Part shown: piece by piece, positions 5,379-60,496 of the stretch | Layout: each line of letters opens with the position of its first letter | Numbering within the stretch: position 1 is the first letter of the stretch | NCBI GenBank assembly: GCA_009838645.1 | Contig: VXRC01000045.1 | Coordinates: forward strand, 1,594-65,593 | Direction: 5' to 3' | Source: Gemmatimonadota bacterium | Lineage (GTDB): Bacteria > JAAXHH01 | DNA: 64,000 bases | The notes under the pieces: model-generated | Databases searched by the model: none | What the model was told of the DNA's origin: nothing | The model's input: the letters and a program-made list of their open reading frames with translations, nothing else | Made by a program: the position numbers and the translations under genes

Positions 5379-6413
5379 ATGCCCCTGAAATTCGCGTACC
5401 TGGGCCTCTGGCACAGCCACGCCGGCATGCATATCCGCGACGCCGCGAGCCGGCCGGACGAGTTCCAGCTCGTCGGCGCATACGAGCCGGATCCCGCGAT
5501 CCGGAACACGAAGCTGGGTGACTGGGTGGCGGACCTGCCGGACATCCCCGTCTTCGATTCGATCGAGCAGGCGTTGGACAGCGATGCGGAAGCGATCATC
5601 TGCGAGGGCCGCGTCTCGGAGAACCTGGACTACGCCGAACGGGCGCTCGCGGCGGACAAGCACGTGCTTCTCGAGAAGCCGGCGGGCGTGGACATGGCCC
5701 AACTCGAGCGGCTGCACGACACGGCGCGTCGCAAGAACCTGCACCTCCAGATGGCCTACATGTGGCGATATAATCCTGCGGTCGCCGAAATGATCCGGCT
5801 CTGCAGGGCCGGCGCGCTGGGCGATCCCTTCTACTTCAGGGGGCACATCCCGAAGCCCATGGGGTACCACGCCAGGCTGGTGGAGGAACTCGACCGGTAC
5901 AAGGGTTCCCTCTATTTCGAGATGGCCGGGCACCTGGTCGACATCATGGTGACGTTTATGGGCGAGCCACGGCGGGTGGACGCCACGTTCGGGCAATTCC
6001 ACGGCGAACGAAAGCACGTGGACAACGCGGTGGTCGTCCACCGGTTCGACGGCGGCGGCCTGGGGACGATCGACACCGCGTCCATGCACGTGGAGAGCGG
6101 GCTGACCCGGCGTATCGAGTTATACGGGGCCCGGGGCACGGCCATCCATACCCCGATCGGTTCGAACAACCTGACGCTTTCGCTGGCGGATGCCTTCGAA
6201 GGCTATGCGGCGGGATGGCAGGAGGTCACCGTTCCCACGCCGCCGGGACCGCCTTCGCTGCTGACCGAACTCGCGGCCTGTATATCCGGCGCGAAGGAGC
6301 CGGACTATACCCTGGACCACGATATGGCGGTGCATCGCACCCTCTTCGCGGGGTGCGGCATCACCGATGGTTCGGCGATGACGGACGTGCCGCATTCGGT
6401 AAAAAGCGGTTGA
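5379..6413 (+). CDS. Gfo/Idh/MocA-family NAD(P)-dependent oxidoreductase
   Basis: The internal Met (MPLKFAYLGLWHSHAGMH...) is preceded by AAAGGA 8 nt upstream. The pattern EKP...A..HVLLEKP is typical of the Gfo/Idh/MocA Rossmann N-terminus. The upstream 27 codons of ORF 5298..6413 lack an RBS. Confidence 0.7.
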   Translation: MPLKFAYLGLWHSHAGMHIRDAASRPDEFQLVGAYEPDPAIRNTKLGDWVADLPDIPVFDSIEQALDSDAEAIICEGRVSENLDYAERALAADKHVLLEKPAGVDMAQLERLHDTARRKNLHLQMAYMWRYNPAVAEMIRLCRAGALGDPFYFRGHIPKPMGYHARLVEELDRYKGSLYFEMAGHLVDIMVTFMGEPRRVDATFGQFHGERKHVDNAVVVHRFDGGGLGTIDTASMHVESGLTRRIELYGARGTAIHTPIGSNNLTLSLADAFEGYAAGWQEVTVPTPPGPPSLLTELAACISGAKEPDYTLDHDMAVHRTLFAGCGITDGSAMTDVPHSVKSG

Positions 6414-6680: not shown

Positions 6681-8354
6681 ATGGCTGAAATGACCGGCTA
6701 CCGGTACATCGCGGAGATGCTGCGCGGCTACGGGATCAGGGCCGTCTTCCACGTTCCCTACGTTCTGGACGGCGCCCTCGTGGAGATGGAGAAACTGGGC
6801 ATCCGGCGGATCCGGTGCCATTCCGAGAAGGCCGCCGCGTACATGGCGGACGGTTACGCGCGGGTCGCCCACGGTCCCGGTATCGCCATGGCGCAGTCCG
6901 TGGGCGCGGCCAATCTCGCCGCCGGGCTCCAGGACGCCTGGCTTGCGTGCTCCCCGGTCATCGCCGTAACGGGCCGGTGGATGCCCCACTACCTATACCA
7001 GCAGGCCTACCAGGAGATCGACCACCGCCCCCTCTACGATCCGGTCACCAAGTTCAATGCCTACGTGGACGGCGTGGAACAGATCCCCTTCCTGCTGCGC
7101 CAGGCCTTCCGCGAGGCCACCACGGGCGCGCCCCGTCCGGTCCACCTGGACTTTCTGGGCCTGTCCGGCGATCTCGCGGCGGGGTCGAAGCTCGACGCCG
7201 AGGTGACCGTGGAGCCGTCCTTCGCCCGGTATCCGGCCTTCCGGCCCGAACCGGAACCGGGTCGTGTCGCGGATGCGGCGCAGCGCATCGCGCGGTCGCA
7301 GCGGCCGGTACTGGTTGCGGGGGGAGGGGTCACCGCATCGGGCGCGAAGGCCGAGGTGGTCCGGTTGGCGGAGAAGCTCTCCGTCCCGGTGGCGACTTCC
7401 CTGAACGCCAAGGGGGCGACACCGGAGAACCACCCATTATCCGCAGGCGTGGTGGGCACCTATTCCCGCAAGTGCGCCAACGAGATCGTTTCGGAGGCGG
7501 ACCTCGTGATCTTCGTGGGCAGCCATACGGGCGGGCAGGTCAGTCACTTCTGGCAGATTCCCCGGCAGGGGACGCCGGTCATACAGATCGACGTGGACCC
7601 CGCCCAGATCGGCCGCAACTATCCCGCCGAAGTCGCCATCCAGGGCGACGCGAAGGCGACGCTGGAACGCCTCATCGAGGTCGTGGCCCCGGTCTTGGAC
7701 CGAACGGCCTGGACAGAGCGCGTGCGCGTACTCGTCGACCAATGGCGGGGCGAATTCGACGATCTGCTCAAGTCTGATGCCGTACCCATCCGCCCCGAAC
7801 GTCTGTGCCGCGAAATCACCGAATTCCTCCCACCCGACGCCATCCTCCTTTCGGACACGGGCCATGCCGGCATGTGGACGGGCGCCATGATCGAGATCAC
7901 GAACCCGGGACAGACGTACCTTCGCTGCGCCGGGTCCCTGGGCTGGGCCTTCCCCGCGGCCATGGGCGCGAAGTGCGCGGCGCCGGACCGTCCCGTCATC
8001 TGCTTCACCGGCGACGGCGGATTCTGGTACCATCTCGGGGAACTCGAGACGGCCGCCCGATTCGGGATCAACACCGTCACGGTGATCAACAACAACCGGT
8101 CCTTCAACCAGTGCCGGGACGCTTTCGAAGATGCGAGCGGCGGGCGGGACCAAGATTCAGACGACCTGTGGGTCTTTGAAGACATCGATTTCGCCGGGGT
8201 GGCCAAATCCATGGGATGCAAAGGGATACGCGTGGAAGAACCGGAGCGGATCCGGCCGGCTCTTGAAGAAGCGATGGCGGCCGACGGACCGGTTGTCGTA
8301 GACGTGGCCACCGATATCGACGCCATGGCGCCGAAAGCCTACGTACCGGAATAG
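6681..8354 (+). CDS. Thiamine-pyrophosphate-dependent enzyme (acetolactate-synthase-like family)
   Basis: Start MAEMTGYRYIAEML has AAAGGAAC upstream. Three-domain TPP-enzyme layout. The C-terminal block GSLGWAFPAAMGAKCAAPDRPVICFTGDGGFWY..NN is the TPP-binding GDG-(N)-NN motif. Confidence 0.75.
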   Translation: MAEMTGYRYIAEMLRGYGIRAVFHVPYVLDGALVEMEKLGIRRIRCHSEKAAAYMADGYARVAHGPGIAMAQSVGAANLAAGLQDAWLACSPVIAVTGRWMPHYLYQQAYQEIDHRPLYDPVTKFNAYVDGVEQIPFLLRQAFREATTGAPRPVHLDFLGLSGDLAAGSKLDAEVTVEPSFARYPAFRPEPEPGRVADAAQRIARSQRPVLVAGGGVTASGAKAEVVRLAEKLSVPVATSLNAKGATPENHPLSAGVVGTYSRKCANEIVSEADLVIFVGSHTGGQVSHFWQIPRQGTPVIQIDVDPAQIGRNYPAEVAIQGDAKATLERLIEVVAPVLDRTAWTERVRVLVDQWRGEFDDLLKSDAVPIRPERLCREITEFLPPDAILLSDTGHAGMWTGAMIEITNPGQTYLRCAGSLGWAFPAAMGAKCAAPDRPVICFTGDGGFWYHLGELETAARFGINTVTVINNNRSFNQCRDAFEDASGGRDQDSDDLWVFEDIDFAGVAKSMGCKGIRVEEPERIRPALEEAMAADGPVVVDVATDIDAMAPKAYVPE

Positions 8355-46914: not shown

Positions 46915-47036
46915 GGCCACCCGGTTCTTCAGAATATACTCAACCATCTAATCGGTATTTGACCGGCAATAGCTTGTCGAAATACGTTGCCACGTATGTT
47001 TTAATTTCAAACAATATATCGAATATTATTGACAAT

Positions 47037-47065
47037 CATGTTCGATTTTTGTATATGTTCTATTA
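47037..47065 (+). promoter_or_regulatory. Near-consensus sigma70 promoter TTGACA-N17-TATATG upstream of islet 1's first gene
   Basis: ttgacaatcatgttcgatttttgtatatg, then GAGGGAGGTGAGTA-ATG (strong SD) at 47106. Confidence 0.35.
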
Positions 47066-47105
47066 CGTATCGCCAACCGATCCACCACTGCGAGGGAGGT
47101 GAGTA

Positions 47106-48338
47106 ATGGATCTCAGAGAGCTCGGACAAAGACTGCGTTATGCGCGGGAGTTCAGGGGGCTCAGTCAACAGGCGACAGCGAAAGCCATTGGTGTGACAAG
47201 AACGGCAATTACTCAGATGGAGTCCGGTAACCGGTCAGTTTCGACACTGGAACTGTCAAAACTCGCTGAGTGTTTTAGACGACCGATAAGCTACTTTTTT
47301 CAGGAGACTACCGAGGAAGAAGATATACTAATCTCGCTATACCGAATTGCACCTAATTTGAAAAGCAATCGTGCAATTCGAAATCGAGTTGGTCAGTGCC
47401 TAGACCTCTTTCGAGAAGGCTTGGCCATGAAAAAGATCCTCGGTATAGAATCCCGTGCAGGTCTACCCGTGTATGATATTCAACCCCCTCGAACCAGAGG
47501 CGATGCTATTACCCAGGGCAATAAGGCTGCTACAGAAGAGAGGCGTCGGTTAGGCATAGGTGAGTCTCCGATTCACAATATCACGGAGCTAATTGTGTCG
47601 CAGGGAATCTGGGCTTCCGATGCAAAACTGCCACAAGAGATGTCGGGACTTTTTGTTAATCATAGCTCATTTGGATTGGCGATTGTCGTTAACTCAGATC
47701 ATTCGCGAGGTCGGAAACAGTTTTCCTATGCACATGAATATGCCCATGCACTTATGGACAGGGATGGGAATCTAGCGGTCTCCAGTAGAGAAAACTCGTC
47801 CGAACTGGTGGAAGTACGAGCAAACGCATTTGCCGCGTCTTTTTTAATGCCTGCAGGAGGCGTATACGAAGAACTAAAGGACTTGGATACGGATTTCCCT
47901 TACCAAAGGGTTCATACCGTATACGATGCTGCCCGTGGAGAGCCATTAGAAGGAGTCATACGTACGTCACCAAGTTCGCGTGGCGTGACCTATAAAGACG
48001 TGGCGAAAATAGCACATCGTTTTGGGGTTAGTTATCAGGCAGCACTATATCGAATGAAAAGTCTAAGGATAGTATCTGACCAGGAAATGGACCGTCAGAT
48101 GGCATTAGAAGATCTAGGTAAGGAGTTTCTCAATGAGTTAAGCGATTCCGAAAGTGTAGAAAGAAGGGATTTGAAAAAACCATCTGATCGAGAACTGCGC
48201 TTTGAAGTGGCTGGTCTTGCAATTGAGGCCTTCCGAAGAGATTGTATCTCCCAAGGCCGACTTCTAGAACTAAGTAAGTTGCTAAAAATAGATGGTCAGC
48301 AATTTATCGACTTTGCATTGAAGGCGCGTGGGAATTGA
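47106..48338 (+). CDS. Fusion of XRE-family HTH and ImmA/IrrE (M78) zinc metallopeptidase domains
   Basis: N-terminal HTH LRYAREFRGLSQQATAKAIGVTRTAITQMESGNR. HExxH in FSYAHEYAHALMD. 410 aa. Confidence 0.75.
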   Translation: MDLRELGQRLRYAREFRGLSQQATAKAIGVTRTAITQMESGNRSVSTLELSKLAECFRRPISYFFQETTEEEDILISLYRIAPNLKSNRAIRNRVGQCLDLFREGLAMKKILGIESRAGLPVYDIQPPRTRGDAITQGNKAATEERRRLGIGESPIHNITELIVSQGIWASDAKLPQEMSGLFVNHSSFGLAIVVNSDHSRGRKQFSYAHEYAHALMDRDGNLAVSSRENSSELVEVRANAFAASFLMPAGGVYEELKDLDTDFPYQRVHTVYDAARGEPLEGVIRTSPSSRGVTYKDVAKIAHRFGVSYQAALYRMKSLRIVSDQEMDRQMALEDLGKEFLNELSDSESVERRDLKKPSDRELRFEVAGLAIEAFRRDCISQGRLLELSKLLKIDGQQFIDFALKARGN

Positions 48339-48340
48339 AA

Positions 48341-48862
48341 ATGTGTATGGTGAAAAACAAGCCCAAGATCGTAATGGATTCAACAGTGATAGTCAGTCTA
48401 TTACGTACAGATCGCTTAGCAATATTCAGCCGATTTGCCCACGGTCGTCTGCTGATAACAAACCATGTATTAGTGGAGATAACAAACTGTTTCCCCGATC
48501 AATTGAAGTCATTTGAGTATCTGGTTGATCGCGGGATTTTAAAGCAGATCTCTGTCAGTAACAAGGACGAACTGTTGGTGTTCCGTGATCTATGTAAACT
48601 AAACACGTTGGGTATTGGTGAATGCGCTGCCATTGCGGTTGCTGTAACAGGAAATCGAATCTTGGCGATAGATGGTAGATGTGCCTCAAGTCAAGCCAGA
48701 AGGATGCAACCAGATCTTCGCATTTTAAGCACCAAGAATCTAATGGATACTTTGCTTAAGAATAACGTGATGGATGAAAACAGACTCAAGACAGCATTAA
48801 ATGCACCATTTAATACGAGTTCCGACCGACCCCCAAACACAGGCGTCGTGGAGTCTTCTTAG
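48341..48862 (+). CDS. PIN-like domain protein (resembles DUF3368/COG2405-type PIN nucleases)
   Basis: KIVMDSTVIV (beta1 Asp), VLVEIT, LGIGECAAIAVAV...LAIDGR pattern. ATG lies 3 nt after the stop of the HTH-ImmA gene. An alternative TTG start at 48335 overlaps that stop. Confidence 0.5.
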   Translation: MCMVKNKPKIVMDSTVIVSLLRTDRLAIFSRFAHGRLLITNHVLVEITNCFPDQLKSFEYLVDRGILKQISVSNKDELLVFRDLCKLNTLGIGECAAIAVAVTGNRILAIDGRCASSQARRMQPDLRILSTKNLMDTLLKNNVMDENRLKTALNAPFNTSSDRPPNTGVVESS

Positions 48863-48928
48863 ATTGTCAACTGTTTACCTTTTGAAGTCAGTCTGATTAG
48901 AAACCATTGACTCGGTAGATGACAAATT

Positions 48929-49849
48929 ATGCCCGATAGCAAAAAGTTTTACGTTCTTGCTTTGGATGGTGGCGGTACAAGAGGGGTATATTCCGCGCAA
49001 CTTCTTTCCAAGCTTGAAACGACATTGGGACGTAGTATCAGAGACTGTTTCCATCTTATAGCTGGATCAAGCACCGGTTCAATTGTAGCGGGTGCGGCTG
49101 CAACAGGTATAAAGATGGAAAAAACCGTTGGTTTTTTTGAGAAATCGGCCAAAAGGGTATTCAAGAAACGTTTTTATCGATGTGGATTAACAAAAAGTAA
49201 GTACCGAAATGAGCAACTTAGGGAAGTTATTACAGATTCACTTCCTTCAATAACTCTTGGCGAAATTGAAACACCGCTGATGATAACTGGTTCCGATACG
49301 AGTACCGGCAAAGCGAGGGTATTCAAGTCAAGATACTTAAAGCAACTTGGAGAACCTTACGTAATGGATGGGAACTTGCTATTGAGCAAAGTGATTCTAG
49401 CTTCGTGTTCCGCACCAACATTTTTCGATCCAACAGATATCGATGGTCATCTAGTTGTCGATGGCGGTCTCTGGGCTAACAATCCTTCGATCATATCGCT
49501 TTCCGAAGCTATTTCGAAATTCAACAGGGAGGTAAAAGATGTCAAAATCCTATCCATAGGGACAGGACAGAAAACCGAAAGCATATACGCTAGACAGAAG
49601 CACTGGGGATTACTTACAGGATGGGGTGGGGTCAAACTCGTTACGTATTTCCTTGACCTGCAGTCTCAAGCTTCCAAGAACATGGCCGAGTTAGTCCTTG
49701 GTAACAACTATCTTCGTCTTAACCCATCGATAGGAGACTGGAACCTGGACGATACAGAGCACTTGGAAAACCTACGGTCTCTTGCTGACATGGATTACTC
49801 GTACAATGTAGATGCAATAAAAGCTTTTACAATTCCCGATGGAGGTTAA
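48929..49849 (+). CDS. Patatin-like phospholipase (CapV-like candidate effector)
   Basis: Oxyanion hole LDGGGTRG, nucleophile elbow AGSSTG (GxSxG), and catalytic Asp in VVDGGLWANNP. Confidence 0.85.
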   Translation: MPDSKKFYVLALDGGGTRGVYSAQLLSKLETTLGRSIRDCFHLIAGSSTGSIVAGAAATGIKMEKTVGFFEKSAKRVFKKRFYRCGLTKSKYRNEQLREVITDSLPSITLGEIETPLMITGSDTSTGKARVFKSRYLKQLGEPYVMDGNLLLSKVILASCSAPTFFDPTDIDGHLVVDGGLWANNPSIISLSEAISKFNREVKDVKILSIGTGQKTESIYARQKHWGLLTGWGGVKLVTYFLDLQSQASKNMAELVLGNNYLRLNPSIGDWNLDDTEHLENLRSLADMDYSYNVDAIKAFTIPDGG

Positions 49850-49851
49850 AA

Positions 49852-51471
49852 ATGAAACATCCTCAATACTTTGTTGATTTCCTAAAAAATGAAGTCAACC
49901 TGAATCCGGATAGGCTTGAAACACTCAAAAGTAGGTCTAGTGCAGTAGGTAAATACCTGCGCGACAACCTGGGTTTATATCGAAAGACGGAACGACAGGG
50001 ATCGTATGCTACTGAAACGATAATTAAACCAGTTAACAATCATGAATATGACGCAGACTTGCTTCTTTACATGAAGTATGATGCGGACAAAGTACCTCGG
50101 GAATACATAGAGGATGTTTACAGTTGCCTGAAGAAGAATAAAACCTACAAGGATAAGATCCACAGAAAGACCCACTGCGTTATAATTGACTATACAGGGG
50201 ATTTCCATCTGGATCTCGTCCCTTGTATTGAAAGCAACGGTAGCTCATATGTGTGTAACAGACAGACTAACAAGTACGAACTCACAGATGGGACTGGTTA
50301 TAGGGACTGGTTCATTGGTAAATCCAGAAAGACAAATGGTCACTTAAAACGAGTGGTAAGATTGCTGAAGTACCTAAGGGACATTAAGCAGACCTTTTCA
50401 ATACCCTCGATTGTATTGACGACTCTTGTCGCAAGGGAAGTACTAGAGTGGGGTGACGAGAACCGCTATAGTGATATTCCAGAAACATTGAAAACAATAT
50501 CTAATAGGATCAACGGTTTTCTACAAGCCAACCACTACTTACCTTCAATCGCTAATCCCGTCATTCCATCAGAAAACCTCGCCACAAACTGGAGCCAAGA
50601 TCAGTATACGAACTTCAGAAGCAAATTCGATCTATACAATAGTAAAATCAATGATGCTTACGCTGAAAATGACCACAACGAAAGTGTTAAAAAATGGCGA
50701 AGTGTTTTCGGTGAGAAATTCGGTAAGCTTAATGGTACAAACACGTACAGGAGTGCATTGGGTACTACAGGAATTACCTCATCCGTGACCCCTAGGAAGC
50801 AGCACGCTGGTTTGCACGAGATTGCCAGAGAATTCCCACTTAATGATAACCAGATACAGAGATTATTGGACCAGTTTCCACGTTTACGTTATGAACCAGA
50901 ACCAAAAAGGATCGTCGGTGGAATTGACTTCTGCGCCTATTACGACACAAAGTCGGGGAAACTTGAAATTGGCGACTTAGAAGATGCACGAACACATCCT
51001 CTGTTTATTTGCGATAGTTATGAAATCAAAATATGCTTGAATTCTGTGGATCTAAATGGCTGGCCAGCTGTTTATGAATCTGGTGGCAGACATTACGAGA
51101 TTGCTACCCGGTACAGAATACCTGAAGTTGATCTACATTTCTATCCGAATAGTGGTGCCTGCTGTCTTGGAATAAGAAGATCACGTCCAAGTACACGATT
51201 TGATGTCATACAGTTTGTAGCTGACCTGGTTATCCCGTTTCTATACCGACTTTCTTATGTAGATAAGTTCGGGTTGGAAGCTGCACGTAGGGATCTTTGG
51301 GGTGAGTATTCCCATTCGGATGGTATACAGGAGTATATAACAGAAATGTTAGTATACGCTGGTAAAAACCCAGGACGGAATACCAGTTGTCCGTGCGGAA
51401 GTGGAAAGAAATACAAAAACTGCCATATGAATGAGGTAGAGCATACATTGAATGCAGTAAATAGCCTGTGA
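49852..51471 (+). CDS. SMODS/CD-NTase-like nucleotidyltransferase with C-terminal extension of about 200 aa ending in a SEC-C zinc motif
   Basis: Pol-beta NTase motifs RQGSYATETIIKPVNNHEYDADLLLYM (GS...DxD) and third acidic residue in DFHLDLVPC. Downstream IPSIVLTTLVAREV resembles the CD-NTase hpShhLEhL helix. C-terminus SCPCGSGKKYKNCH. GGAGG sits 6 nt upstream, and the gene starts 3 nt after the patatin stop. Confidence 0.6.
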   Translation: MKHPQYFVDFLKNEVNLNPDRLETLKSRSSAVGKYLRDNLGLYRKTERQGSYATETIIKPVNNHEYDADLLLYMKYDADKVPREYIEDVYSCLKKNKTYKDKIHRKTHCVIIDYTGDFHLDLVPCIESNGSSYVCNRQTNKYELTDGTGYRDWFIGKSRKTNGHLKRVVRLLKYLRDIKQTFSIPSIVLTTLVAREVLEWGDENRYSDIPETLKTISNRINGFLQANHYLPSIANPVIPSENLATNWSQDQYTNFRSKFDLYNSKINDAYAENDHNESVKKWRSVFGEKFGKLNGTNTYRSALGTTGITSSVTPRKQHAGLHEIAREFPLNDNQIQRLLDQFPRLRYEPEPKRIVGGIDFCAYYDTKSGKLEIGDLEDARTHPLFICDSYEIKICLNSVDLNGWPAVYESGGRHYEIATRYRIPEVDLHFYPNSGACCLGIRRSRPSTRFDVIQFVADLVIPFLYRLSYVDKFGLEAARRDLWGEYSHSDGIQEYITEMLVYAGKNPGRNTSCPCGSGKKYKNCHMNEVEHTLNAVNSL

Positions 51472-51514
51472 TATTTCTGAGAAATAAGGCTAAGATACTT
51501 CCGGAGTATTAAAA

Positions 51515-52312
51515 GTGATCTCAAAACGCATACTACCCGGCGAGCGCCTCGACGACGCCCAAATGGACGTGATTCTCGAGGACTTTTGCAGGAATGGTGT
51601 CACCCTCATTCCCGGGGTGCTGACGAGGGAAGAAATCGACGCACTCCGCGAGGTCACGGACCGTTGCTTCAACGATCCCGTCCTGGCCGGCACCGATTAC
51701 TTGAGCGGCCAGGGAGACGGATTCGTGCTGCGGAACACGCTGGAGCTGGACGCGGTGTTCGTGGACATGCTGATCCGTGAACCCATCCTGAGCCTGGCCG
51801 AGGCGGTCGTGGGGGAGGACTGCAAGTTCTGCGGTCAGAACGTGATCCGCAACGCGCCGGGACAGGCGATCGATCTGTGGCACGTGGACGACCGGGTGGA
51901 GTTCCCGCTGCCGGACGACGTGCCCCGCCACGACCCACGCATCCGCATGCCCGTGCAGTGGTTCACCATCCAGATGGCGCTCACCGACATCGACACGGTC
52001 GAGGACGGCCCGACGCAGTTCGTCCCGGGCAGCCACTATTCCGGCAGGGACCCCAACAGCCAGGAAAACCCCGAGTTCGATGGACGAGGGCCGGTATCGG
52101 TCTTCTGCAAGGCAGGAGACGTCTACCTGCAGAACAACCAGTGCTGGCACCGGGGTGCGCCGGTTACGTCGAACCGGATGCGCTACGTCTTCCAGTCCCA
52201 GTATGCCGCCCGCTGGGCCCACCGGCGATTTTCCGAATACCACCACGTTCCCGTACCGCCCACGGTGCTGTCCCGGGCGTCCGACCGGTTGCGCGGCGTG
52301 CTGGGCGTGTGA
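51515..52312 (+). CDS. PhyH-family dioxygenase, paralog 3 (GTG start)
   Basis: HxD in LWHVDDRVE, FVPGSHYS, distal His NQCWHRGAP. High GC resumes here. Confidence 0.65.
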   Translation: MISKRILPGERLDDAQMDVILEDFCRNGVTLIPGVLTREEIDALREVTDRCFNDPVLAGTDYLSGQGDGFVLRNTLELDAVFVDMLIREPILSLAEAVVGEDCKFCGQNVIRNAPGQAIDLWHVDDRVEFPLPDDVPRHDPRIRMPVQWFTIQMALTDIDTVEDGPTQFVPGSHYSGRDPNSQENPEFDGRGPVSVFCKAGDVYLQNNQCWHRGAPVTSNRMRYVFQSQYAARWAHRRFSEYHHVPVPPTVLSRASDRLRGVLGV

Positions 52313-52362
52313 CGTAACGGACTCCGGCCTAGCCCCGGCATCGACCGGGTGTGCTTGGTGGA

Positions 52363-53577
52363 TTAGTGCACGATGGTCTCGAACTGCGCGGGCAGCGCCA
52401 CCTCGAGGAGTTCGAGGTCGGTCGAACGGTCTGTGAGCGACGTCTTCGTGTGCGGAGGAATGACGTAGGCGTCCCCTGCCTCGAGCCTGTGGGCAACCTG
52501 GTTTTCCCCGTTCAGCGTCACCTCCCCTTCCATGACGAAGGTGAAGAGGATATCGCCCGTGTGGCTAGTGACCTGTTCGCCGCCACCAGAGGAGCGGCCG
52601 TCCGGGCCGCCATCCGTGCCACTTCCACTCGCGTCGCTTCCACTCGCGTCGCCGCCGGCCGCACCGCTGTCCGCGCCATCCGTCGCCCGGGCGACCTGCA
52701 CCGAGGCCACGCCGTCCGTCGCCTTTCCGATGCCCGTTTCCCTCGCTTCGAACCCAGCAATTCTCCACGGTTCCCACACCGCGTCCTTGAGCTGGTGGCG
52801 GCAGAAGGTCTGACCGCCGAAGACGCGGTCGGGATTCAGCACCTGGGTCGGCAGCTCGACCTCGTGGTCGATAGTGGTCACGTGGTCAGCCGGGACGCCG
52901 ATCTCGATCACCTGGAGGTTCTCGGACGATTCGAGCACACGGTGCCGTATTTCCGGGGGCTGGATCACGCAGTCCCCGGCCTTCAGCATGAAGGGCGGCC
53001 CCTGGTCCTCGTAGACGAGCTTCACCTCGCCCCGGTAGGCGAAGATCAACTGGAATCCCACGGTGTGGTAGTGCACGACGTCGGGTACGGGTCCGGCGTC
53101 GGGTATCCGGATGTGGGAGGCGATGATGCTCCCACCCAGGCGGCCTGGTACCAGGTCGCGGTAGTGCATGCCCGCTCGGCCGATCACCCAGGGCGTGTTG
53201 TCCTTGAGCCTCCGCACGAGGAAGGCGTGCTGTGTCGGCGGGATCTCGAGCGGCGGATCGGCCTGTACGATCTCGATTCGGGTGCCGTTCGGCGCGGTGA
53301 GTTCGGTCTCGCCGCCAGCGAGGGCCGCCGGATCGCGGCACAAGATCCGCAGCGTGCCCGGTGGTTCGGAGGCATCCTGCTCCAGCCGGATGGTGAGTCC
53401 GTGGCCGGAGAGGACGGAGACCGTCGGGTAGTCGGCTGGGTAGATCTTGTCCATGCGGAACCCGAGGGTCTTCATGAAGAACCCCAGGTCCGCGGTCAGG
53501 TCCTCGGACGGCAGCCGGATCTCGGCGCCCTGGATATTGTCCGCGCGGTTGGATTGTTTGTCGTCATGTAACTGCAT
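52363..53577 (-). CDS. VOC/cupin-domain protein with Gly/Ser/Asp-rich insertion
   Basis: GAAGGAG sits 7 nt upstream of the ATG. Cupin-like strands (DILFTFVMEGEVTL...GDAYVIPP). Low-complexity insert DGADSGAAGGDASGSDASGSGTDGG comes from a 15-bp tandem repeat. Confidence 0.45.
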   Translation of the reverse strand: MQLHDDKQSNRADNIQGAEIRLPSEDLTADLGFFMKTLGFRMDKIYPADYPTVSVLSGHGLTIRLEQDASEPPGTLRILCRDPAALAGGETELTAPNGTRIEIVQADPPLEIPPTQHAFLVRRLKDNTPWVIGRAGMHYRDLVPGRLGGSIIASHIRIPDAGPVPDVVHYHTVGFQLIFAYRGEVKLVYEDQGPPFMLKAGDCVIQPPEIRHRVLESSENLQVIEIGVPADHVTTIDHEVELPTQVLNPDRVFGGQTFCRHQLKDAVWEPWRIAGFEARETGIGKATDGVASVQVARATDGADSGAAGGDASGSDASGSGTDGGPDGRSSGGGEQVTSHTGDILFTFVMEGEVTLNGENQVAHRLEAGDAYVIPPHTKTSLTDRSTDLELLEVALPAQFETIVH

Positions 53578-53589
53578 CGGCCTGCTCCT

Positions 53590-54711
53590 TCAACCTTTGA
53601 ATCGATACTTCTCCACGACGTCCATGTTCAGCTCCGTTCCCAGCCCGGGTTTCTCGGGAAGCCGGAAGTAGCCGCTTTCCACGACCGGCGGATCGGTCAG
53701 CAGGTCGTCGCGCCAGGGGGCGTCCCACTTTTCGTCCACGAACTCGAGCACCAGGGCGTTCGGGATGTTGGCCATGACGTGGAGGCTCGCAGTCGTCGAC
53801 AATGCGCTGTTCGGATTGTGGGGCGAGACCTGCATATAGTAGCTTTCGGCCATGGCGGCGATCTTCTTGGTCTCCATGATGCCGCCCGTGCGCACCACGT
53901 CCGGCATGATCATGTCGACGGCCTGGGCGGCGATCAGGTCCCGGAAGCCGAAGCGCGTGTACCGGCGCTCGCCCACGCACACCGGCACGTTGACCGACGC
54001 CGTCACCCGGGCCAAGGCGTCGATGTTCTCCGGGTGGACGGGCTCCTCGTAGAACAGCAGGCCGATTTCCTCCAGCCGGTTGCCGATGCGGATCGCGGCG
54101 CTCGTGGTGTACCGGCATCCCACGTCGGTGCAGAGGTCCACCTCGTCGCCCACGGCCTCGCGGCACCGGCGCATGTGTTCCAGTGCGAGCTTTTCTTCGC
54201 GAAGCGTGACGGAACGCGGTGAATCGATACGCTCCCCGTTGGCCAACTGGTCGGCGGGGAAGTACGCCTTGATGGCGGTAACGCCCTTCTCGGCCAGCGC
54301 CGCGCATTCCTCCGGGTTGGACGCATGGCTGTAGAACCGGATGCGGTCGCGGCACGGTCCGCCGATGAGGTTGTAGATGGGCTGCCCGGTGACCTTGCCC
54401 ACGATGTCCCACAGGGCGATCTCGATGCCGCTGACGGCCGCGATGACCGCGCCGGTCTGCCCGATCTGCTCCAGGGCGTAGTACATGCGATGGTACAGGT
54501 ACTCGATGTGGAAGGGATTTTCGCCGATGATGAGCTTGCCCAGTTCCTCCACGGATTGGGCGATGATCGTACCGCCCGGCCAGTTCGTGGCGTCCCCCAG
54601 GCCCACGACGCCCTCGTCGGTATGGACCTGGACGAAGATCCATGGCGATCCGATGTCCCGGGTTTTGCGCCAGGACTCTACCAGATGAACTTTCACATCG
54701 GTGATTTTCAC
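53590..54711 (-). CDS. Enolase-superfamily MR/MLE enzyme (acid-sugar dehydratase-like)
   Basis: GTG start with GGAGGA 5 nt upstream gives MKITDVKVHLVESW... Typical MR/MLE N-terminal capping domain plus a barrel with metal ligands (...DVGCRY..., EEP, ...D...). 373 aa. Confidence 0.75.
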   Translation of the reverse strand: MKITDVKVHLVESWRKTRDIGSPWIFVQVHTDEGVVGLGDATNWPGGTIIAQSVEELGKLIIGENPFHIEYLYHRMYYALEQIGQTGAVIAAVSGIEIALWDIVGKVTGQPIYNLIGGPCRDRIRFYSHASNPEECAALAEKGVTAIKAYFPADQLANGERIDSPRSVTLREEKLALEHMRRCREAVGDEVDLCTDVGCRYTTSAAIRIGNRLEEIGLLFYEEPVHPENIDALARVTASVNVPVCVGERRYTRFGFRDLIAAQAVDMIMPDVVRTGGIMETKKIAAMAESYYMQVSPHNPNSALSTTASLHVMANIPNALVLEFVDEKWDAPWRDDLLTDPPVVESGYFRLPEKPGLGTELNMDVVEKYRFKG

Positions 54712-54761
54712 AGACTTCCTCCGGGCGTCATCCAGGCTGCGCGCGGTTCGAGCCGCCGCCC

Positions 54762-55565
54762 TCAGTCCCGCCGCAGGTGGCTGAACTCCGGTTTGGGACC
54801 GCCCTCTTCCCGGTCCCACTGCCACAGTTCCGTGTAGGGAGACTGGGCCTGGAAACCAAAGATGACCGGTCCGTCCTCGCCCGCCCGTTCGAGCACGTCG
54901 GGCTTCACCACGCGGGCCATCTCGTATTCGCACTTGGTCCAGCGGCGCCGCCAGGGGCTGAGCACCGCGTAACGCGGCTCGTCCGTCTGGTTCTTCGTCG
55001 TGCCGTGCCAGGTGTTCACGTCGAAAAGCACCAGCGATCCTTCCGGGGCCACGGCGGTCCGGGCATTGTCGTAGGCCGAGTCGGGCACGTCCAGGTACTC
55101 GTAGCGGTGGCTGCCGGGAACGAACTCGGTGGCGCCGTTGAGTTCAGTGAAGGGACTCAGGCAGAAGATCACGTTGAGCGCGATCGAATGGCTGGTGATC
55201 CGCCGGCCTTCGTCGGCTTCGGGCATGGAAGCCTCGCGGTTGTGGCCGGTAATGCCGCTGTCGGAATGCAGGCCGTGACCGCCCTCTCCGGGCATCACGA
55301 CCGACCCGTACACGGCGCTCAGGAGCGCGTCGGAACCCAGGAAGTGGCGGACCAGCCGCAACAGGTCGGGCAGCTGGTAGAACCGCTCGAAGACCCGTGC
55401 CTTGTTGAACAGCCACTCGAAACTGCCCCGTTCCTTGTCGGGGTAACGGGCCTTCAGTTCCCTGCGCGCTTCGGCGCACTCGTCCGCGGTCAACTGGTCC
55501 GTCAGGATGGTGTAGCCCTCGACCTTCAGGTCCAGCACATGGCTTTCAAATTCCGCCTCTGTCAT
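54762..55565 (-). CDS. PhyH-family dioxygenase, paralog 4
   Basis: GLHSDSG (HxD), FVPGSHRY, NTWHGTT. Confidence 0.7.
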   Translation of the reverse strand: MTEAEFESHVLDLKVEGYTILTDQLTADECAEARRELKARYPDKERGSFEWLFNKARVFERFYQLPDLLRLVRHFLGSDALLSAVYGSVVMPGEGGHGLHSDSGITGHNREASMPEADEGRRITSHSIALNVIFCLSPFTELNGATEFVPGSHRYEYLDVPDSAYDNARTAVAPEGSLVLFDVNTWHGTTKNQTDEPRYAVLSPWRRRWTKCEYEMARVVKPDVLERAGEDGPVIFGFQAQSPYTELWQWDREEGGPKPEFSHLRRD

Positions 55566-55599
55566 GCCATGGTCCCTCTTACCTTGTAAATGTCAGAGT

Positions 55600-56415
55600 C
55601 TAACGTCCTGCCAGATCGTCGCCCAGGTCGGTCGCGTCCACCTTGCCCTTCTCCAGGCTCACGCCGACAACGAATAGTTCGAGGTCTTCGCCGGTATGGT
55701 TGTAGATGCCGTGGGCTCCGCCCATGCGATTCGGGATAGCGTCCCCGCGGACGACCTCCTCCGTCTCGTCATTCACCGTCATCCGGCCCCGGCCGTTCAT
55801 TATCATATAGGCCTCATCGACGATCTCGTGCCGGTGGTAACCTACGGAAGTGCCTGGCGGCAGCAGTATGTGGCAGAGATACTCGAAATTCGTCTGGAAA
55901 TCCCGGCTGCCCCATACCTCCCGAAAAAACACTTCGCCCTTGCCGCCGTGGTGCCGTCGAGGTTTCAGCAGGGCGCGGTCGAAACACCCCACGGGCAGGC
56001 GATCCGTGGATTCCAGCTCGACCCCGATGCGCGGGTCGTCGAAATCCTCGTGCTTCGGTTTGCGGACCGTATCCACGCAGTGAAAATTGAAGAACCAGGT
56101 ATCCCGGTCCGTGTGGTTGTAGATGCCGTGGGACTCGCCCGAGCGCAGGGGCACCGCGGCGCCGCCGACGACTTCGGCCGTGCGGCCGTTGTGGGTGAAT
56201 TGCGCGGCGTTGTCGATGGTAACGAAAATTTCTTCCGCGTAGGTGTGGCTGTGCTGACCTATGCCGCTGCCAGGCGGGAAAATCACCGAGTGGATGAACG
56301 TCCACGGCGATTCGAAGTCACGTTCGCTGAAGCCGGGGTTGAAGTAGCTTGCCGCGGCGCCGCCGTGGCTAACGCCCAGGTGCATCTCTTCACGCCTGGT
56401 ATGGGTAATCCGCAT
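55600..56415 (-). CDS. Bicupin protein
   Basis: Two cupin-2-like repeats: ...HSHTYAEEIFVTIDNAAQF...GESHGIYN and ...YHRHEIVDEAYMIMNGRGRM...GGAHGIYN. Confidence 0.55.
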   Translation of the reverse strand: MRITHTRREEMHLGVSHGGAAASYFNPGFSERDFESPWTFIHSVIFPPGSGIGQHSHTYAEEIFVTIDNAAQFTHNGRTAEVVGGAAVPLRSGESHGIYNHTDRDTWFFNFHCVDTVRKPKHEDFDDPRIGVELESTDRLPVGCFDRALLKPRRHHGGKGEVFFREVWGSRDFQTNFEYLCHILLPPGTSVGYHRHEIVDEAYMIMNGRGRMTVNDETEEVVRGDAIPNRMGGAHGIYNHTGEDLELFVVGVSLEKGKVDATDLGDDLAGR

Positions 56416-56506
56416 GCTGGCCGCTCCGGACTCCCGGCGATATCCTCATCCGGGGGTGTGAGCCTGCAGGAACTTCAAGGGGCATCAACCTCAAAGGGCA
56501 TCAACC

Positions 56507-57310
56507 TCAAAGGACCACTTCCTCGACAGGCTGCGTGCCGGTCTCGTAGGCGGGCCGCCACCGGTCGTGGGCCATGGACTCTTCCTCGCTCAGCCCGCAC
56601 AGCCAGTTCCAGGTGTGGATGCGGCGCCTCAGGTCCCGGTAGGATTCCACCCCGCTCGTGTAAGGCGCGGCCGGGCGATCCCGGTACGCGGGGATTTCTT
56701 CCGAATCGATCAGCCAGTCGCGCCGTCGCGGTTCCGAATTGCGGAAGTAGGAGAACTTGATCATGCTGCGGGGCTTGTGATTGAGTTTGGGACCGGCCCG
56801 GTGCCAGATGCCGTACCGGGTAATGGCCACGGTGCCGGCCTTCACGACGAGCGAAAGTTGCCCCATAAGATCGCCATAGTGGGCCAATGCGTCGCGATTG
56901 ACCGCCCGGCAGTGGGAGCCGGGCAGGATCATGGTCGGCCCGTCCTCGATATTCACGTCCTGCGGATAGTAGTAGCACTGGAGTTCGTTGATCTCGTAGC
57001 CGAGTCCTGATATGCCGTCCGAATGCCAGTCCTGTCCCGAGACCGGCTGGTCTATGAGATGGTGATGTCCCCCCGTCGGCATAAGGAAGTTGGGACCAAG
57101 GAGCGAACGAATTACGCCCGCCAACCGGGGATGGAGCAGCACTTCGCGGATGAAATCGGGTGAACCGACCGTTTCCTTCGCGGGGCCTTGTTGCAAGTTG
57201 CGGCACCGCTCGTTGTAATCGGGATCCACCATCTCGTCGAGCACGACATAGCCCTTTGCCACGAAATCCATCACGTCGTCATCGGTCATCGTCGGTTTGA
57301 TCTCCGCCAT
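56507..57310 (-). CDS. PhyH-family dioxygenase, paralog 5
   Basis: GAGGAGG sits 7 nt upstream. DWHSDGIS (HxD), ILPGSHCR, IWHRAGPK. Confidence 0.7.
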   Translation of the reverse strand: MAEIKPTMTDDDVMDFVAKGYVVLDEMVDPDYNERCRNLQQGPAKETVGSPDFIREVLLHPRLAGVIRSLLGPNFLMPTGGHHHLIDQPVSGQDWHSDGISGLGYEINELQCYYYPQDVNIEDGPTMILPGSHCRAVNRDALAHYGDLMGQLSLVVKAGTVAITRYGIWHRAGPKLNHKPRSMIKFSYFRNSEPRRRDWLIDSEEIPAYRDRPAAPYTSGVESYRDLRRRIHTWNWLCGLSEEESMAHDRWRPAYETGTQPVEEVVL

Positions 57311-57322
57311 CGGTAAGCCTCC

Positions 57323-57685
57323 TCAGTTCCACTTCTCGAGTATGAAATCGAAACCTACGTAGTCGTTTTCGAGGTCCTTGTATTCGTAGAGCTTATTGAT
57401 GGGGTACTGCACCACGCGCCATCCGTCGGCGACCGCTTCCAGGACGGATTCGTATGGCGGCTCGTCGCCCGGCAACTTGAGCTCGGGCCCCTCGCCCGGG
57501 ACGAATACCGCCCAGCCGACGATCCCGGACCGCATGTTGATCGACCGGGCCGTCAGGTACATGATCCTGAGCGGCCGCTGGTTTTCTATCAGCCCTTCAA
57601 GTTGTTCCAGGTCCCCGTAATCCAGCCCCTTCTCTTCCAATTTCTTACGACTTTCGGCAATCCATTGCCTGATTTCCGATTGCAT
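57323..57685 (-). CDS. Small hypothetical protein (first gene of the minus-strand cluster)
   Basis: 120-aa ORF ending 12 nt before the PhyH-5 start. Moderate GC. No family recognised. Confidence 0.4.
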   Translation of the reverse strand: MQSEIRQWIAESRKKLEEKGLDYGDLEQLEGLIENQRPLRIMYLTARSINMRSGIVGWAVFVPGEGPELKLPGDEPPYESVLEAVADGWRVVQYPINKLYEYKDLENDYVGFDFILEKWN

Positions 57686-57907
57686 GTCATATGCCTTTAT
57701 GTATCAGCGTGATGTCCGATATCTACAAGTGTATATGTAAGGGGAATCCGGTGTGGCTGTCCCGGATTGTAAAGGCGAAACAGGCACCATGTCAAGCATG
57801 ATTGAAGATTCCCGTCACCGGCATCCGCAATCCGCGACGGGCTTGACAGCAACACCCCGACCCCGTAAGTTCCCAAGAATCTGAAAACCGTTTTCCAGGA
57901 TAGCCAA

Positions 57908-58657
57908 ATGTCCACTTCACAGCCCCTGAACGCCCAGCAGATCGCCTACTTCAAGCTGAACGGCTACCTGGTGCTGAAGAACGTCTTCGACGAGCAGACC
58001 CTGGAGGCATGGCGGCGGCAGATCTGGCGGGCGCTCGATGGCTGCCTGGAGGACCCCGCGACCTGGCCCCGGGAGACAAGCGGTCTCGACGGATACGAAT
58101 ACGATCCGCCCGAGTCGGCCCTCGTGCACCATCCCTGCATGATGTCGATCATCGACCAGCTCAGCGGGGGACACTTCGTCGCGGGCGATGGCATACCGAT
58201 CATACGCTGGCCCGAACCGGAGCGGACGTTCGAAATCCCCAAAACAGGCCATATCGACGCCTACGGCGGTCGCTGGCTGCCCTTCATGATCGGCGCGACG
58301 ACTTATCTATACGACGTGGAACCCGGCGGCGGCGCCCTCATCTACTGGCCGGGAAGCCACCACGCCGCCCACAGGTACTTCCTGGAGCATCCCTCGCATG
58401 TGGACGGGAGTTTCCTGGAGATCGAGGGATTCTCCTGGGATGTGTTCTGCGACAACCCGGCCACCGGCGGCCGGGAATTCACCGCGAAGGCCGGCGACGT
58501 GGTGCTCTGGCACTCCTACCTGACGCACAATGGATCGGAGAACACCAGCCATTCGCCGCGTTTCGCCCTGTTCGCCCGCTGGAACCACGAGAAACACCTG
58601 GACCAGGCCTTCCGGTACGAGATTCCCGAAGACCTGTGGAAGTACTGGGCGGTGTGA
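57908..58657 (+). CDS. PhyH-family dioxygenase, paralog 6
   Basis: N-terminal QQIAYFKLNGYLVLKNVF, HIDAYGG, YWPGSHHA, LTHNGSEN. Confidence 0.7.
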   Translation: MSTSQPLNAQQIAYFKLNGYLVLKNVFDEQTLEAWRRQIWRALDGCLEDPATWPRETSGLDGYEYDPPESALVHHPCMMSIIDQLSGGHFVAGDGIPIIRWPEPERTFEIPKTGHIDAYGGRWLPFMIGATTYLYDVEPGGGALIYWPGSHHAAHRYFLEHPSHVDGSFLEIEGFSWDVFCDNPATGGREFTAKAGDVVLWHSYLTHNGSENTSHSPRFALFARWNHEKHLDQAFRYEIPEDLWKYWAV

Positions 58658-58713
58658 GCCGGCGACAAACGTGGTGTTGCAGTTAGCCAGTAACTAAAAA
58701 GCGGATATTGCAA

Positions 58714-60072
58714 ATGGATCTACGCAAACTAATCTTGGAAGACGTGAGATGTTTCGGCGGACGTCAAGAATTCGACATCCGGCCAATTACGTTTTTAGTT
58801 GGTGAGAATAGCACTGGTAAGTCCACTGCGCTTGGCTGTTTTCAAATTATCCATGATTTCATTTTTAGTAATGAAATTGGATTGAATTTCAACGTGGAAC
58901 CATATTCGATGGGTTCGTTTACGGACATCGTTAGGAGGTCTAGACCCGGTAAGACTCATTTTCGGATCGGCGTCGGATTTCAATCAGAATCATCACAAAG
59001 CGATCTGGAGTACATGCTGGTACTTTCAGCTAAAAACCGTGGATCCGAGCCAACCATACAAGAGCAGAACGTCCGTATGTCGAAAGGTGAGGTTACGTTT
59101 ATCGAAAGATCAGCTGGAGATGGTGTAGATGGCATGCAATCAGAGTACTTAAAAGGATTTGAAATAACTGATCCTCCATCTAAGGAAGGTTTTCAGAAAA
59201 CTACTGTTGTATCTGGAAGGTACCACTTGGACAAAACAGTCTTGGATTTACTGTTACCGATCAATAGATACCGACATTTGACGGCCAAGTGGCGTCCAGA
59301 GTCCATGCACGTCTTGGTTAATCTCGGCGAAAAACCTCCCGGACCCTTCGGCGGAGATTGGAATAAGTTGTTTGGGAAAGATCACTTGCTTCCATCTGAA
59401 GCATATAGTTTTGCTCCGATAAGAACTAATCCATTACGTACCTACGATCCATTAAGGGAAGATATGGATCCTGCCGGCAGCGACATCCCCATGGTTATCA
59501 GGAACATGTTTATAACCGAAAGAGACAGATGGGAAAAACTCAAAGGAAACCTTGTCGCATTCGGCAAATCATCAGGATTGTTTTCTGATGTCAATGTGAG
59601 AGTACTTGGCAATTCCTCAGGTGACCCGTTTCAAATACAGATTAAGGTAAATGGCCCCAAAGTGAATATGAAAGATGTAGGACATGGAGTGAGCCAGATT
59701 CTTCCAATACTTGTACGTATACTCGACAGTCCTCGGAACATGGTTTTCCTGATGCAGCAACCTGAGGTCCATCTGCATCCTAAGGCACAGTCAGAGTTGT
59801 CGTCTATTCTCGTTGAAGCAGTAAAGCAAAAGAAACATAGATTCGTCATAGAAACACATAGCGATCACCTGGTAAATCGGGCGCGAATCGAAATCATGAA
59901 AGGAACAATCGATCCACAGGATGTTTCGCTGATATACCTTGAACCTGTTGGTAACCGGGTCAGTGTCCATAACATTCAGTTTGATAAACTGGCGAATCTG
60001 TTGAATGTTCCTCAAGGATATAGGGATTTTTTCATCGATGAATCGGATAAGCTACTCGGTTTATCCAAGTGA
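58714..60072 (+). CDS. AAA_21/OLD-like family ATPase (abortive-infection-type ABC-like ATPase)
   Basis: Walker A FLVGENSTGKST. Walker B/D-loop MVFLMQQPEVHLHP. H-loop IETHSDH. Lies in low-GC islet 2. An alternative TTG start is at 58708. Confidence 0.75.
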   Translation: MDLRKLILEDVRCFGGRQEFDIRPITFLVGENSTGKSTALGCFQIIHDFIFSNEIGLNFNVEPYSMGSFTDIVRRSRPGKTHFRIGVGFQSESSQSDLEYMLVLSAKNRGSEPTIQEQNVRMSKGEVTFIERSAGDGVDGMQSEYLKGFEITDPPSKEGFQKTTVVSGRYHLDKTVLDLLLPINRYRHLTAKWRPESMHVLVNLGEKPPGPFGGDWNKLFGKDHLLPSEAYSFAPIRTNPLRTYDPLREDMDPAGSDIPMVIRNMFITERDRWEKLKGNLVAFGKSSGLFSDVNVRVLGNSSGDPFQIQIKVNGPKVNMKDVGHGVSQILPILVRILDSPRNMVFLMQQPEVHLHPKAQSELSSILVEAVKQKKHRFVIETHSDHLVNRARIEIMKGTIDPQDVSLIYLEPVGNRVSVHNIQFDKLANLLNVPQGYRDFFIDESDKLLGLSK

Positions 60073-60082
60073 AAGTGGAGAC

Positions 60083-60496
60083 ATGTGTCTTATCTTGGAT
60101 GCAAATAAGTTTAGTGATTACTTGAACCCCGAAGATGAAAACATGGAACCAGTTAGAAGGTGGATGAAATCCAAAGGTAAATTGGTTTACTCTCCAACAG
60201 AGAAACTAAAGCAGGAGTTAGACAGGCATAAAAAGATGAGACTGCAGATTGACGAATACCGCAAAAACGGTAGTCTTAAACAATATCCTGCACAAGAAGT
60301 TGAAAGGGTTAAAGACAGGTTACCCTCATTACAGTCAGATGATCCTGATATTATCGCTTTAGCACAAGTAGCAGAAGTTGGCCTGTTGGTTTCAGGTGAT
60401 ACTGACTTGCATGCGGATTTCAAAGCAGTAATTGGAGGGAGTGTGTATCAGACGAGAAAACACAGCCGCTTGTTGAGAAGAGATACCTGTCCTTGA
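60083..60496 (+). CDS. Small PIN/TOPRIM-like putative nuclease partner of the ATPase
   Basis: MCLILDANKF (N-terminal Asp), SPTEKL, DPDIIALAQVAEVGLLVSGDTDLHADF (C-terminal acidic motif). Begins 10 nt after the ATPase stop. An alternative in-frame start at 60038 would overlap the ATPase. Confidence 0.4.
   Translation: MCLILDANKFSDYLNPEDENMEPVRRWMKSKGKLVYSPTEKLKQELDRHKKMRLQIDEYRKNGSLKQYPAQEVERVKDRLPSLQSDDPDIIALAQVAEVGLLVSGDTDLHADFKAVIGGSVYQTRKHSRLLRRDTCP

Follow-up and report, generated by a model that had tools for sequence, protein, structure and literature searches.

How does a cyclase of the CD-NTase type come to carry about 200 additional residues that end in a SEC-C motif, and what would such an extension do? 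The question is raised by a gene on a Gemmatimonadota contig (VXRC01000045.1), of which we analyzed a stretch of 64,000 nucleotides, referred to here as the window. A sequence-only reading had placed an NTase core in the first part of the protein and had suggested that the extension might be a sensor or regulatory module of a kind new to CBASS cyclases. It had also allowed that the reading frame might prove to be two genes separated by a frameshift in related sequences. The identical 539-residue protein is deposited from Gemmatimonadota MAGs under the NCBI name "hypothetical protein". The gene and its upstream neighbor are:

48929..49849, plus strand: CapV-type patatin phospholipase, a CBASS effector (NCBIfam CBASS_lipase, 226 bits against a cut-off of 200)
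49852..51471, plus strand: fused cyclase-E2 open reading frame of 539 residues (CD-NTase, linker with a tail motif, E2 domain and SEC-C motif)

The fused frame starts with an ATG that has a GGAGG 8 nt upstream, and only 2 nt separate it from the stop codon of the patatin gene. The latter is also matched by Pfam Patatin (E=3e-28) and by a PADLOC phospholipase effector model (E=3.7e-80), and a patatin gene adjoins every fused or split homologue among the contexts examined. No separate E2, E1 or JAB gene was found in the operons of the fused homologues examined, and neither ThiF (E1) nor JAB was matched by Pfam or PADLOC in the fused protein or in the small genomic island around it. Judged by its gene content, this is an anti-phage CBASS locus of the E2 type with two genes, in which a CapV patatin effector is paired with a cyclase that has a C-terminal E2. 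The main parts of the fused protein are:

49852..50721, plus strand: CD-NTase (SMODS) catalytic domain, residues 1-290, with the active site G50-S51, D67, D69 and D121
50842..51366, plus strand: predicted E2 (UBC-fold) domain, residues 331-505
51376..51429, plus strand: SEC-C zinc-knuckle motif, residues 509-526 (C513, C515, C524, H525; Pfam SEC-C, 34.4 bits against 20.4)

The N-terminal part is indeed the NTase core of a CBASS cyclase, as the sequence-only reading had it. Pfam SMODS matches at 104.2 bits (threshold 26.5) and DncV-like_NTFase at 43.2 bits (threshold 24.9), PADLOC cyclase models match the fused protein down to E=1.7e-115, and G50-S51, D67, D69 and D121 are invariant in the 111 aligned fused sequences. 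The domain has the bilobed CD-NTase fold. The NCBIfam equivalog cyclase models score below their cut-offs and, therefore, none of the named subfamilies applies to this cyclase. It is predicted to make a cyclic oligonucleotide that activates an effector, and the one line of support for this is the adjacent CapV-type patatin with its 226-bit CBASS_lipase match.

The cyclase is short. After its core, the full-length AF2 model has only a disordered linker and one strand of three residues (310-312), and the helix and ubiquitin-like three-stranded sheet that recruit E2, a defining feature according to Xiao et al. 2026 (PMC12948482), as they recruit the E2 of Serratia marcescens (SmE2), are absent from the modeled cyclase. 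Therefore, this cyclase represents a subfamily distinct from the clade-G E2-CBASS systems, and mechanistic details may differ. An activation-loop tripwire (Hobbs and Kranzusch 2026) was also considered for this cyclase and rejected; the core has no long disordered internal loop, and only the linker at 297-306 is disordered.

The identity of the C-terminal part is less obvious, because Pfam finds nothing there except the SEC-C motif, even at E values up to 1. However, three PADLOC models of the CBASS "E2" match residues 332-531 (PDLC00872 at E=2.4e-21; also PDLC00865 and PDLC00871). The AF2 model of residues 331-539, made with an alignment of 103 mostly stand-alone homologues, has a pLDDT of 88.3 and a pTM of 0.76, and the order of its elements (helix, beta-meander, loop, helices) is that of the UBC fold, so that the domain can be classed with the UBC/E2 folds. 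Because the PADLOC E2 models match and the AF2 model is UBC-like, we equate the domain with the E2 accessory protein of E2-only CBASS. In other words, the profiles and the model indicate that it is the UBC-fold E2 of an E2-only (type II short) CBASS, fused in frame to its cyclase. Homologues of the domain, whether fused or stand-alone, show that it is conserved, and this conservation, together with the pLDDT, bears out the earlier expectation that the extra region is folded and not disordered.

More distant comparisons add little. Foldseek with the C-terminal domain returned only weak UFC1 and UEV matches (E=0.05-2), and searches of the PDB with the single sequence and with a 104-sequence profile found no E2, only SEC-C peptides. 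We found no significant sequence link of the domain to SmE2 or to eukaryotic E2s; hhalign gave human UbcH5B a probability below 1%, which is not significant. When aligned permissively with the same UbcH5B sequence, the domain has H429 and C438 on the histidine of the HPN motif and the catalytic Cys, respectively, which is mentioned as an illustration only.

An AGS-C-type domain, or another of the known C-terminal sensor domains of cyclases, was also considered and rejected, with zero Pfam matches in its favor. Thus, of the two roles proposed earlier for the extension, that of a regulatory module stands, but it is not a sensor of an unseen kind, since the PADLOC matches mark it as the E2 accessory protein. 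As a practical matter, annotation based on Pfam misses the E2 domain.

Two short regions carry the residues predicted to be catalytic:

51136..51165, plus strand: predicted catalytic loop H429-F-Y-P-N-S-G-A-C437-C438, from residue conservation
51313..51315, plus strand: H488, a second invariant histidine, kept in 111 of 111 fused and 103 of 104 mostly stand-alone E2 sequences

Neither H429 nor C438 shows any substitution in these two alignments (111 fused and 104 mostly stand-alone sequences), and C437 is kept in 94-100% of them. In SmE2, C101 is the catalytic residue, H87 is essential for covalent linkage and for tail cleavage, and H152 governs how isopeptide and thioester are converted into each other; according to the authors, H87 and H152 are conserved in the E2s of E2-CBASS only (10.1101/2022.05.25.493364; PMC12948482). 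Counted from the Cys, the two histidines lie at -9 and +50 here (H429 and H488) and at -14 and +51 in SmE2 (H87 and H152 around C101). We propose that H488 corresponds to SmE2 H152. The His-Cys-His arrangement appears similar in the two proteins, the likeness being one of order and spacing and not of superposed structures. A domain that works without conjugation, as a UEV-like or zinc-binding sensor of a ligand or phage protein that activates the cyclase allosterically, seems very improbable to us.

The sequence-only reading had also drawn attention to several Cys-containing stretches, with mixed results. C437 and C438 (in GACCLG) and the Cys residues of the SEC-C motif are conserved, but C361, C387 and C395 (in FCAYYD and ICDSYEIKIC) are not. 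Of the last three columns, 387 is the only one in which Cys outnumbers every other residue, and even this column has it in no more than 26% of the sequences.

The SEC-C motif itself, which had been recognized by eye, is confirmed by its Pfam score. It has the CxC-x8-C-[HC] knuckle of PF02810, in which C513, C515 and C524 are invariant and residue 525 is always H or C. Its counterparts in the PDB are peptides from the C-terminus of SecA (1ozb, 1sx0 and 1tm6), and like the SEC-C of SecA, it combines the CxC...C[HC] knuckle with GSGKKYK. In SecA, however, the motif is carried by a translocase ATPase, whereas here a predicted zinc knuckle is appended to an E2. It closes a stretch of about 50 extra residues at the place where SmE2 has a short loop with K159. 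No mention of a SEC-C motif on a CBASS E2 was found in the literature searched. Since the knuckle occupies the position of the C-terminus of the Serratia E2, one might speculate that it is a sensing or regulatory element, which is plausible.

Where does the protein stand among known systems? E2-CBASS has been characterized experimentally by Yan et al. 2024 (10.1101/2022.05.25.493364) and Xiao et al. 2026 (PMC12948482). In Serratia marcescens, the cyclase SmCdnG and SmE2 (PDB 8hsb) are two proteins and the effector is a 2TM-SAVED protein, whereas here cyclase and E2 form one chain and the effector is a patatin. Type II CBASS has Cap2 and Cap3, that is, an E1-E2 fusion and a JAB protein (Ledvina 2023, Jenson 2023); the E1 adenylation domain and the JAB peptidase are both absent here, and an operon without E1 and JAB (Cap3) is a feature of E2-CBASS.

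The earlier suggestion that a fused domain of this type was new to CBASS cyclases has to be given up. Xiao et al. 2026 (PMC12948482) credit Burroughs et al. 2015 with the CD-NTase-E2 fusion proteins of CBASS operons and, as far as that citation describes them, they have in principle the same domain architecture as the protein studied here. Consequently, the cyclase-E2 fusion as such is already noted in the literature, and the present one belongs to an uncharacterized subfamily of E2-CBASS. In the literature searched, we found no experimental work on any cyclase-E2 fusion and no experimental study of operons in which patatin, cyclase and an E2 with SEC-C are separate genes.

Such split operons bear on another question, namely whether the fusion is real. 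The nearest relatives outside the small lineage P0001-P0003 consist of two separate genes, which could be taken to mean that a frameshift or a lost stop codon merged two genes here, either through an assembly or sequencing error or in a pseudogene, leaving a functionless fusion. The conservation data refute this reading, and we regard it as having next to no chance of being correct. The identical reading frame occurs on nine contigs from independent samples. A syntenic orthologue with 66% identity keeps the frame, with pN of 0.17-0.22 and a pS of 0.82-0.90, which is saturated, in the cyclase and E2 domains; pN/pS is thus about 0.2 in both. The fused form accounts for 112 of the 120 clusters among the matches listed for the whole protein. 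When 1.84 billion representatives at 50% identity were searched with a profile, 441 family members were obtained at E<=1e-10, and 15 of the best 150 of these are fused (476-607 residues, with the match at the C-terminal end). The sequence-only reading had named two genes separated by a frameshift in related sequences as something that would count against it, and close relatives are in fact split, but the fusion is kept in frame on the nine contigs, in the orthologue and in the 112 clusters. These comparisons indicate that the fusion is under purifying selection, here and in many other lineages.

The split relatives are nevertheless of considerable interest. Among the matches listed, they are the closest ones outside that small lineage: eight short matches of 313-329 residues are 55-61% identical to our cyclase part, versus 48-53% for the main fused clade. 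The split cyclases have 311-329 residues and the separate E2+SEC-C genes encode about 213-241. Three contigs, two from metagenomes (L001 and L003) and one from a Ca. Poribacteria MAG (L008), have the order patatin, cyclase and separate E2+SEC-C gene, with the cyclase stop and the E2 start either overlapping or 6-8 nt apart. The E2+SEC-C proteins of the split operons are 50-56% identical to the fused C-terminal domain, and some split-system E2s carry two SEC-C motifs. All 120 of the matches listed for the C-terminal domain are stand-alone proteins of about 206-243 residues with 46-56% identity. In a profile search of genome contigs with the E2 profile, generic SEC-C matches dominate and L008 is the only true relative.

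For the cyclase as well as the E2 domain of our protein, the nearer relatives are found in split systems and not among the other fusions. In rough NJ trees, which are crude and drawn from a biased sample, the fused sequences are intermingled with the split ones. This pattern suggests that more than one fusion or fission event has taken place.

The junction between the two domains contains the features that matter most for a possible mechanism:

50722..50784, plus strand: variable linker, residues 291-311, with pLDDT below 50 at 297-306 and poorly conserved columns
50785..50811, plus strand: cyclase tail motif V312-T-P-R-K-Q-H-A319 followed by G320, conserved in fused and split proteins

In the 112 fused proteins, conservation of the junction motif V-x-P-[RS]-[KR]-P-[YWF]-A amounts to 91-95% (V312 in 91%, P314 in 95% and A319 in 94%; residue 318 is always aromatic or His), whereas in the linker columns outside it the top residue reaches about 40% at most. 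The same motif, in the form ...P-[RKS]-K-[PLF]-Y-A, is found in nine split cyclases, and eight of the nine stop one residue (R, K or E) after the Ala. Thus, the tail Ala is penultimate in eight of nine split relatives and internal in the fused protein. The split operons L001, L003 and L008 share the tail motif, the predicted catalytic residues and the patatin effector with the fusion; they differ in having two genes, with the stop one residue after the tail Ala and a start of its own for the E2.

The full-length AF2 model, which has a pTM of 0.60, gives a pLDDT of 85 to residues 311-320 between flanks of low confidence, with a short strand at 310-312 and a bridge at 317. A beta-bridge at E485, three residues before H488, is present in the full-length model and absent from the domain-only model. 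The model suggests that the tail docks near the E2 active site, although with a pTM as low as 0.60 another docking site is conceivable.

In Serratia, the tail of SmCdnG is P400-K401...Y405-G406-E407; E407 is removed and G406 becomes linked to C101 or K159 (10.1101/2022.05.25.493364; PMC12948482). SmE2 tolerates the replacement of this Gly by Ala (G406A), and when MBP or GFP is attached behind the tail, it removes them (same references). The tail residue is Ala in our protein, whereas a Gly is reported to be highly conserved in E2-CBASS. The C-terminus of E. cloacae CdnD is ...RFA. By analogy, we infer that A319 would be the residue used for conjugation and A319/G320 the cleavage site.

A free E2 could in principle also arise in another way, by internal initiation at a TTG (L321, nt 50812), so that one frame would give two products, the fusion and a separate E2 as in the split systems. 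An AGGAAG at 50794-50799 does precede this in-frame TTG at codon 321 by 12 nt. However, these six nucleotides are the codons for the conserved Arg-Lys in the tail motif, and coding alone explains them; the 12-nt spacing is also long. The junction sequences differ in other fused homologues, and a fusion made beside free E2 would still need processing. Internal initiation is, in our judgement, very improbable.

With these observations, a mechanism can be outlined in which the protein is a cyclase-E2 of CBASS that processes itself. Its starting point is the Serratia E2, which cleaves behind the corresponding Gly of the tail and binds the cyclase as a thioester, and so the fusion would cut itself after A319. 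First, the cyclase tail would dock in the E2 active site. C438, helped by H429, would then attack the A319-G320 bond, either in cis or between molecules; as a result, the chain would be cut and the cyclase held on the E2 domain as a thioester. Next, the cyclase would be transferred to lysines, either on the E2, which would give a resting and inhibited 1:1 conjugate, or on other cyclases, which would give active poly-cyclase chains. A phage cue acting on the C-terminal part of the E2, here the SEC-C knuckle, would tip the balance to the active form, as in the Serratia model of Yan et al., where poly-cGASylation is set off once a phage signal has disrupted the C-terminus of the E2 (10.1101/2022.05.25.493364). 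Finally, the cyclic nucleotide would activate the patatin phospholipase and the membrane of the infected cell would be destroyed. For the whole of this explanation, in which C438 cuts A319-G320 and thioester formation, lysine transfer and patatin activation follow, we would put the probability slightly above even, at roughly 0.55.

A more specific form of this proposal, which we advance only tentatively, is that the fusion is a self-processing pro-enzyme, the E2 being its own protease that cuts after Ala319 and forms the thioester, with the SEC-C motif as the infection sensor that releases poly-cyclase formation. The cue might be a phage protein, the ribosome or a SecB-type partner, or a change in metal or redox state. 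A self-processing fusion would also account for the apparent freedom with which cyclase and E2 genes have fused and split in evolution.

The most serious competitor to self-cleavage is a permanent tether, in which the chain itself, through its peptide bond, stands in for the covalent bond that cyclase and E2 must form in split systems. In Serratia, the covalent 1:1 conjugate of cGAS and E2 is, after all, the inhibited state, Xiao et al. (PMC12948482) take the natural fusions as a sign that cyclase and E2 are covalently linked, and in this lineage only about 11 residues lie between A319 and the first E2 helix. We consider a tether without cleavage doubtful, however. A passive link would not need the Cys-His-His set that is invariant in the fused proteins, the tail Ala, although now internal, is still 94% conserved, and SmE2 readily cleaves proteins placed after the tail. 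On the tether reading, the tail would sit in the E2 groove as a pseudo-substrate, keeping the cyclase inhibited until a phage cue frees the lock with A319 uncut.

Autoproteolysis is what one would predict from a tail motif that is conserved at the junction. The E2 of E2-CBASS needs the C-terminus of the cyclase and here it is attached to that very C-terminus, so that nature has in effect performed an experiment on E2-CBASS. The presence of cyclase and E2 in one polypeptide makes it convenient for structural and biochemical work. The SEC-C tail provides a handle on a question raised in the Yan et al. preprint (10.1101/2022.05.25.493364), namely which phage signal acts on the E2 C-terminus. Operons with these two genes would probably be taken for minimal type I CBASS, when in reality they carry the ubiquitin-like regulatory layer.

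The surroundings of the two CBASS genes deserve a brief comment. They lie in an island of 4.5 kb (47.0-51.5 kb of the window) that has about 40-47% GC, compared to 60-68% in the surrounding genome, and the search around it found no convincing flanking repeats that would mark it as a mobile element. The island consists of four genes, HTH-M78, DUF3368, patatin and cyclase-E2, and all four are syntenic in one relative (L088). The first two are:

47106..48338, plus strand: fused HTH_3 and Peptidase_M78 protein of 410 residues (Pfam HTH_3 E=3.7e-13, Peptidase_M78 E=2.3e-18)
48335..48862, plus strand: DUF3368/PIN-like protein of 175 residues (PADLOC PDC-S70 E=5e-7), overlapping the HTH-M78 gene by 4 nt

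The DUF3368/PIN-like gene, which is thus also kept in the syntenic island, is called from a start two codons downstream in L091 (173 residues), where it carries Pfam DUF3368. Its product may act as a toxin together with the HTH-M78 protein, which is probably the transcriptional regulator or antitoxin of the island. PADLOC models for RmrA, capP and capH match the HTH-M78 protein, which resembles CapH and CapP joined in one chain. Position and synteny are what tie it to the CBASS genes. In the split relative L003, HTH and M78 are separate, divergently oriented genes beside the CBASS operon, as in the CapH/CapP regulators.

The four-gene island that carries the fused cyclase-E2 gene (positions 46950-51520 of the window) occupies the same chromosomal site in a relative, L088. 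In both, the island is flanked by an AP_endonuc_2/UxuA-like gene on one side and a PhyH gene on the other; inspection for direct repeats at its edges, a tRNA gene or an integrase revealed none. Because the site is shared although the fused protein of this relative is only 66% identical to that of the window, the insertion must be old, and the island has been maintained.

Two genes lie immediately 5' of the CBASS genes in the same low-GC island (47106-48862) and overlap each other by 4 nt:

first gene, HTH_3 + Peptidase_M78 fusion, 410 aa (PADLOC: RmrA-like)
second gene, DUF3368/PIN-like, 175 aa (PADLOC: PDC-S70)

The first may represent a CapH/CapP-like regulator in the form of a single chain or, alternatively, the two may be an independent toxin-antitoxin pair.

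The junction of the fused gene displays a feature that can be read in two ways. An AGGAAG lies 12 nt 5' of an in-frame TTG (codon L321), which falls just 3' of the proposed cleavage site; the two elements span 50794-50814. This TTG could be an internal start giving a free E2. More probably, however, the AGGAAG is a side effect of the codons for a conserved Arg-Lys rather than an internal-start signal.

Most members of the family have a single SEC-C motif. L001 and L003, both of them split relatives, each encode a stand-alone E2 (5609-6313 and 6976-7701, respectively) with two in tandem.

At L005 1977-4859 (minus strand), one fused homologue, P0039, adjoins a Bil-like ubiquitin-like conjugation operon with ThiF E1, Prok-E2_C, BilB-like and DUF2604 genes. 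This is a defence island in which two distinct ubiquitin-like systems are neighbours.

PhyH (phytanoyl-CoA dioxygenase-like) and cupin paralogues are unusually dense around the window's island (51515-58657):

51515-52312, PhyH
52363-53577, cupin
54762-55565, PhyH
55600-56415, cupin
56507-57310, PhyH
57908-58657, PhyH

A second patch of low GC (44-50% versus about 64%) is present at 58708-60496. It contains two overlapping ORFs:

AAA_15/AAA_21 ABC-type ATPase, 454 aa, AriA-like (PADLOC: NsnB, E=7e-45; PDC-M55A, E=2e-41)
163-aa ORF, no match in the family search

This patch is probably a further small defence module that was acquired horizontally.
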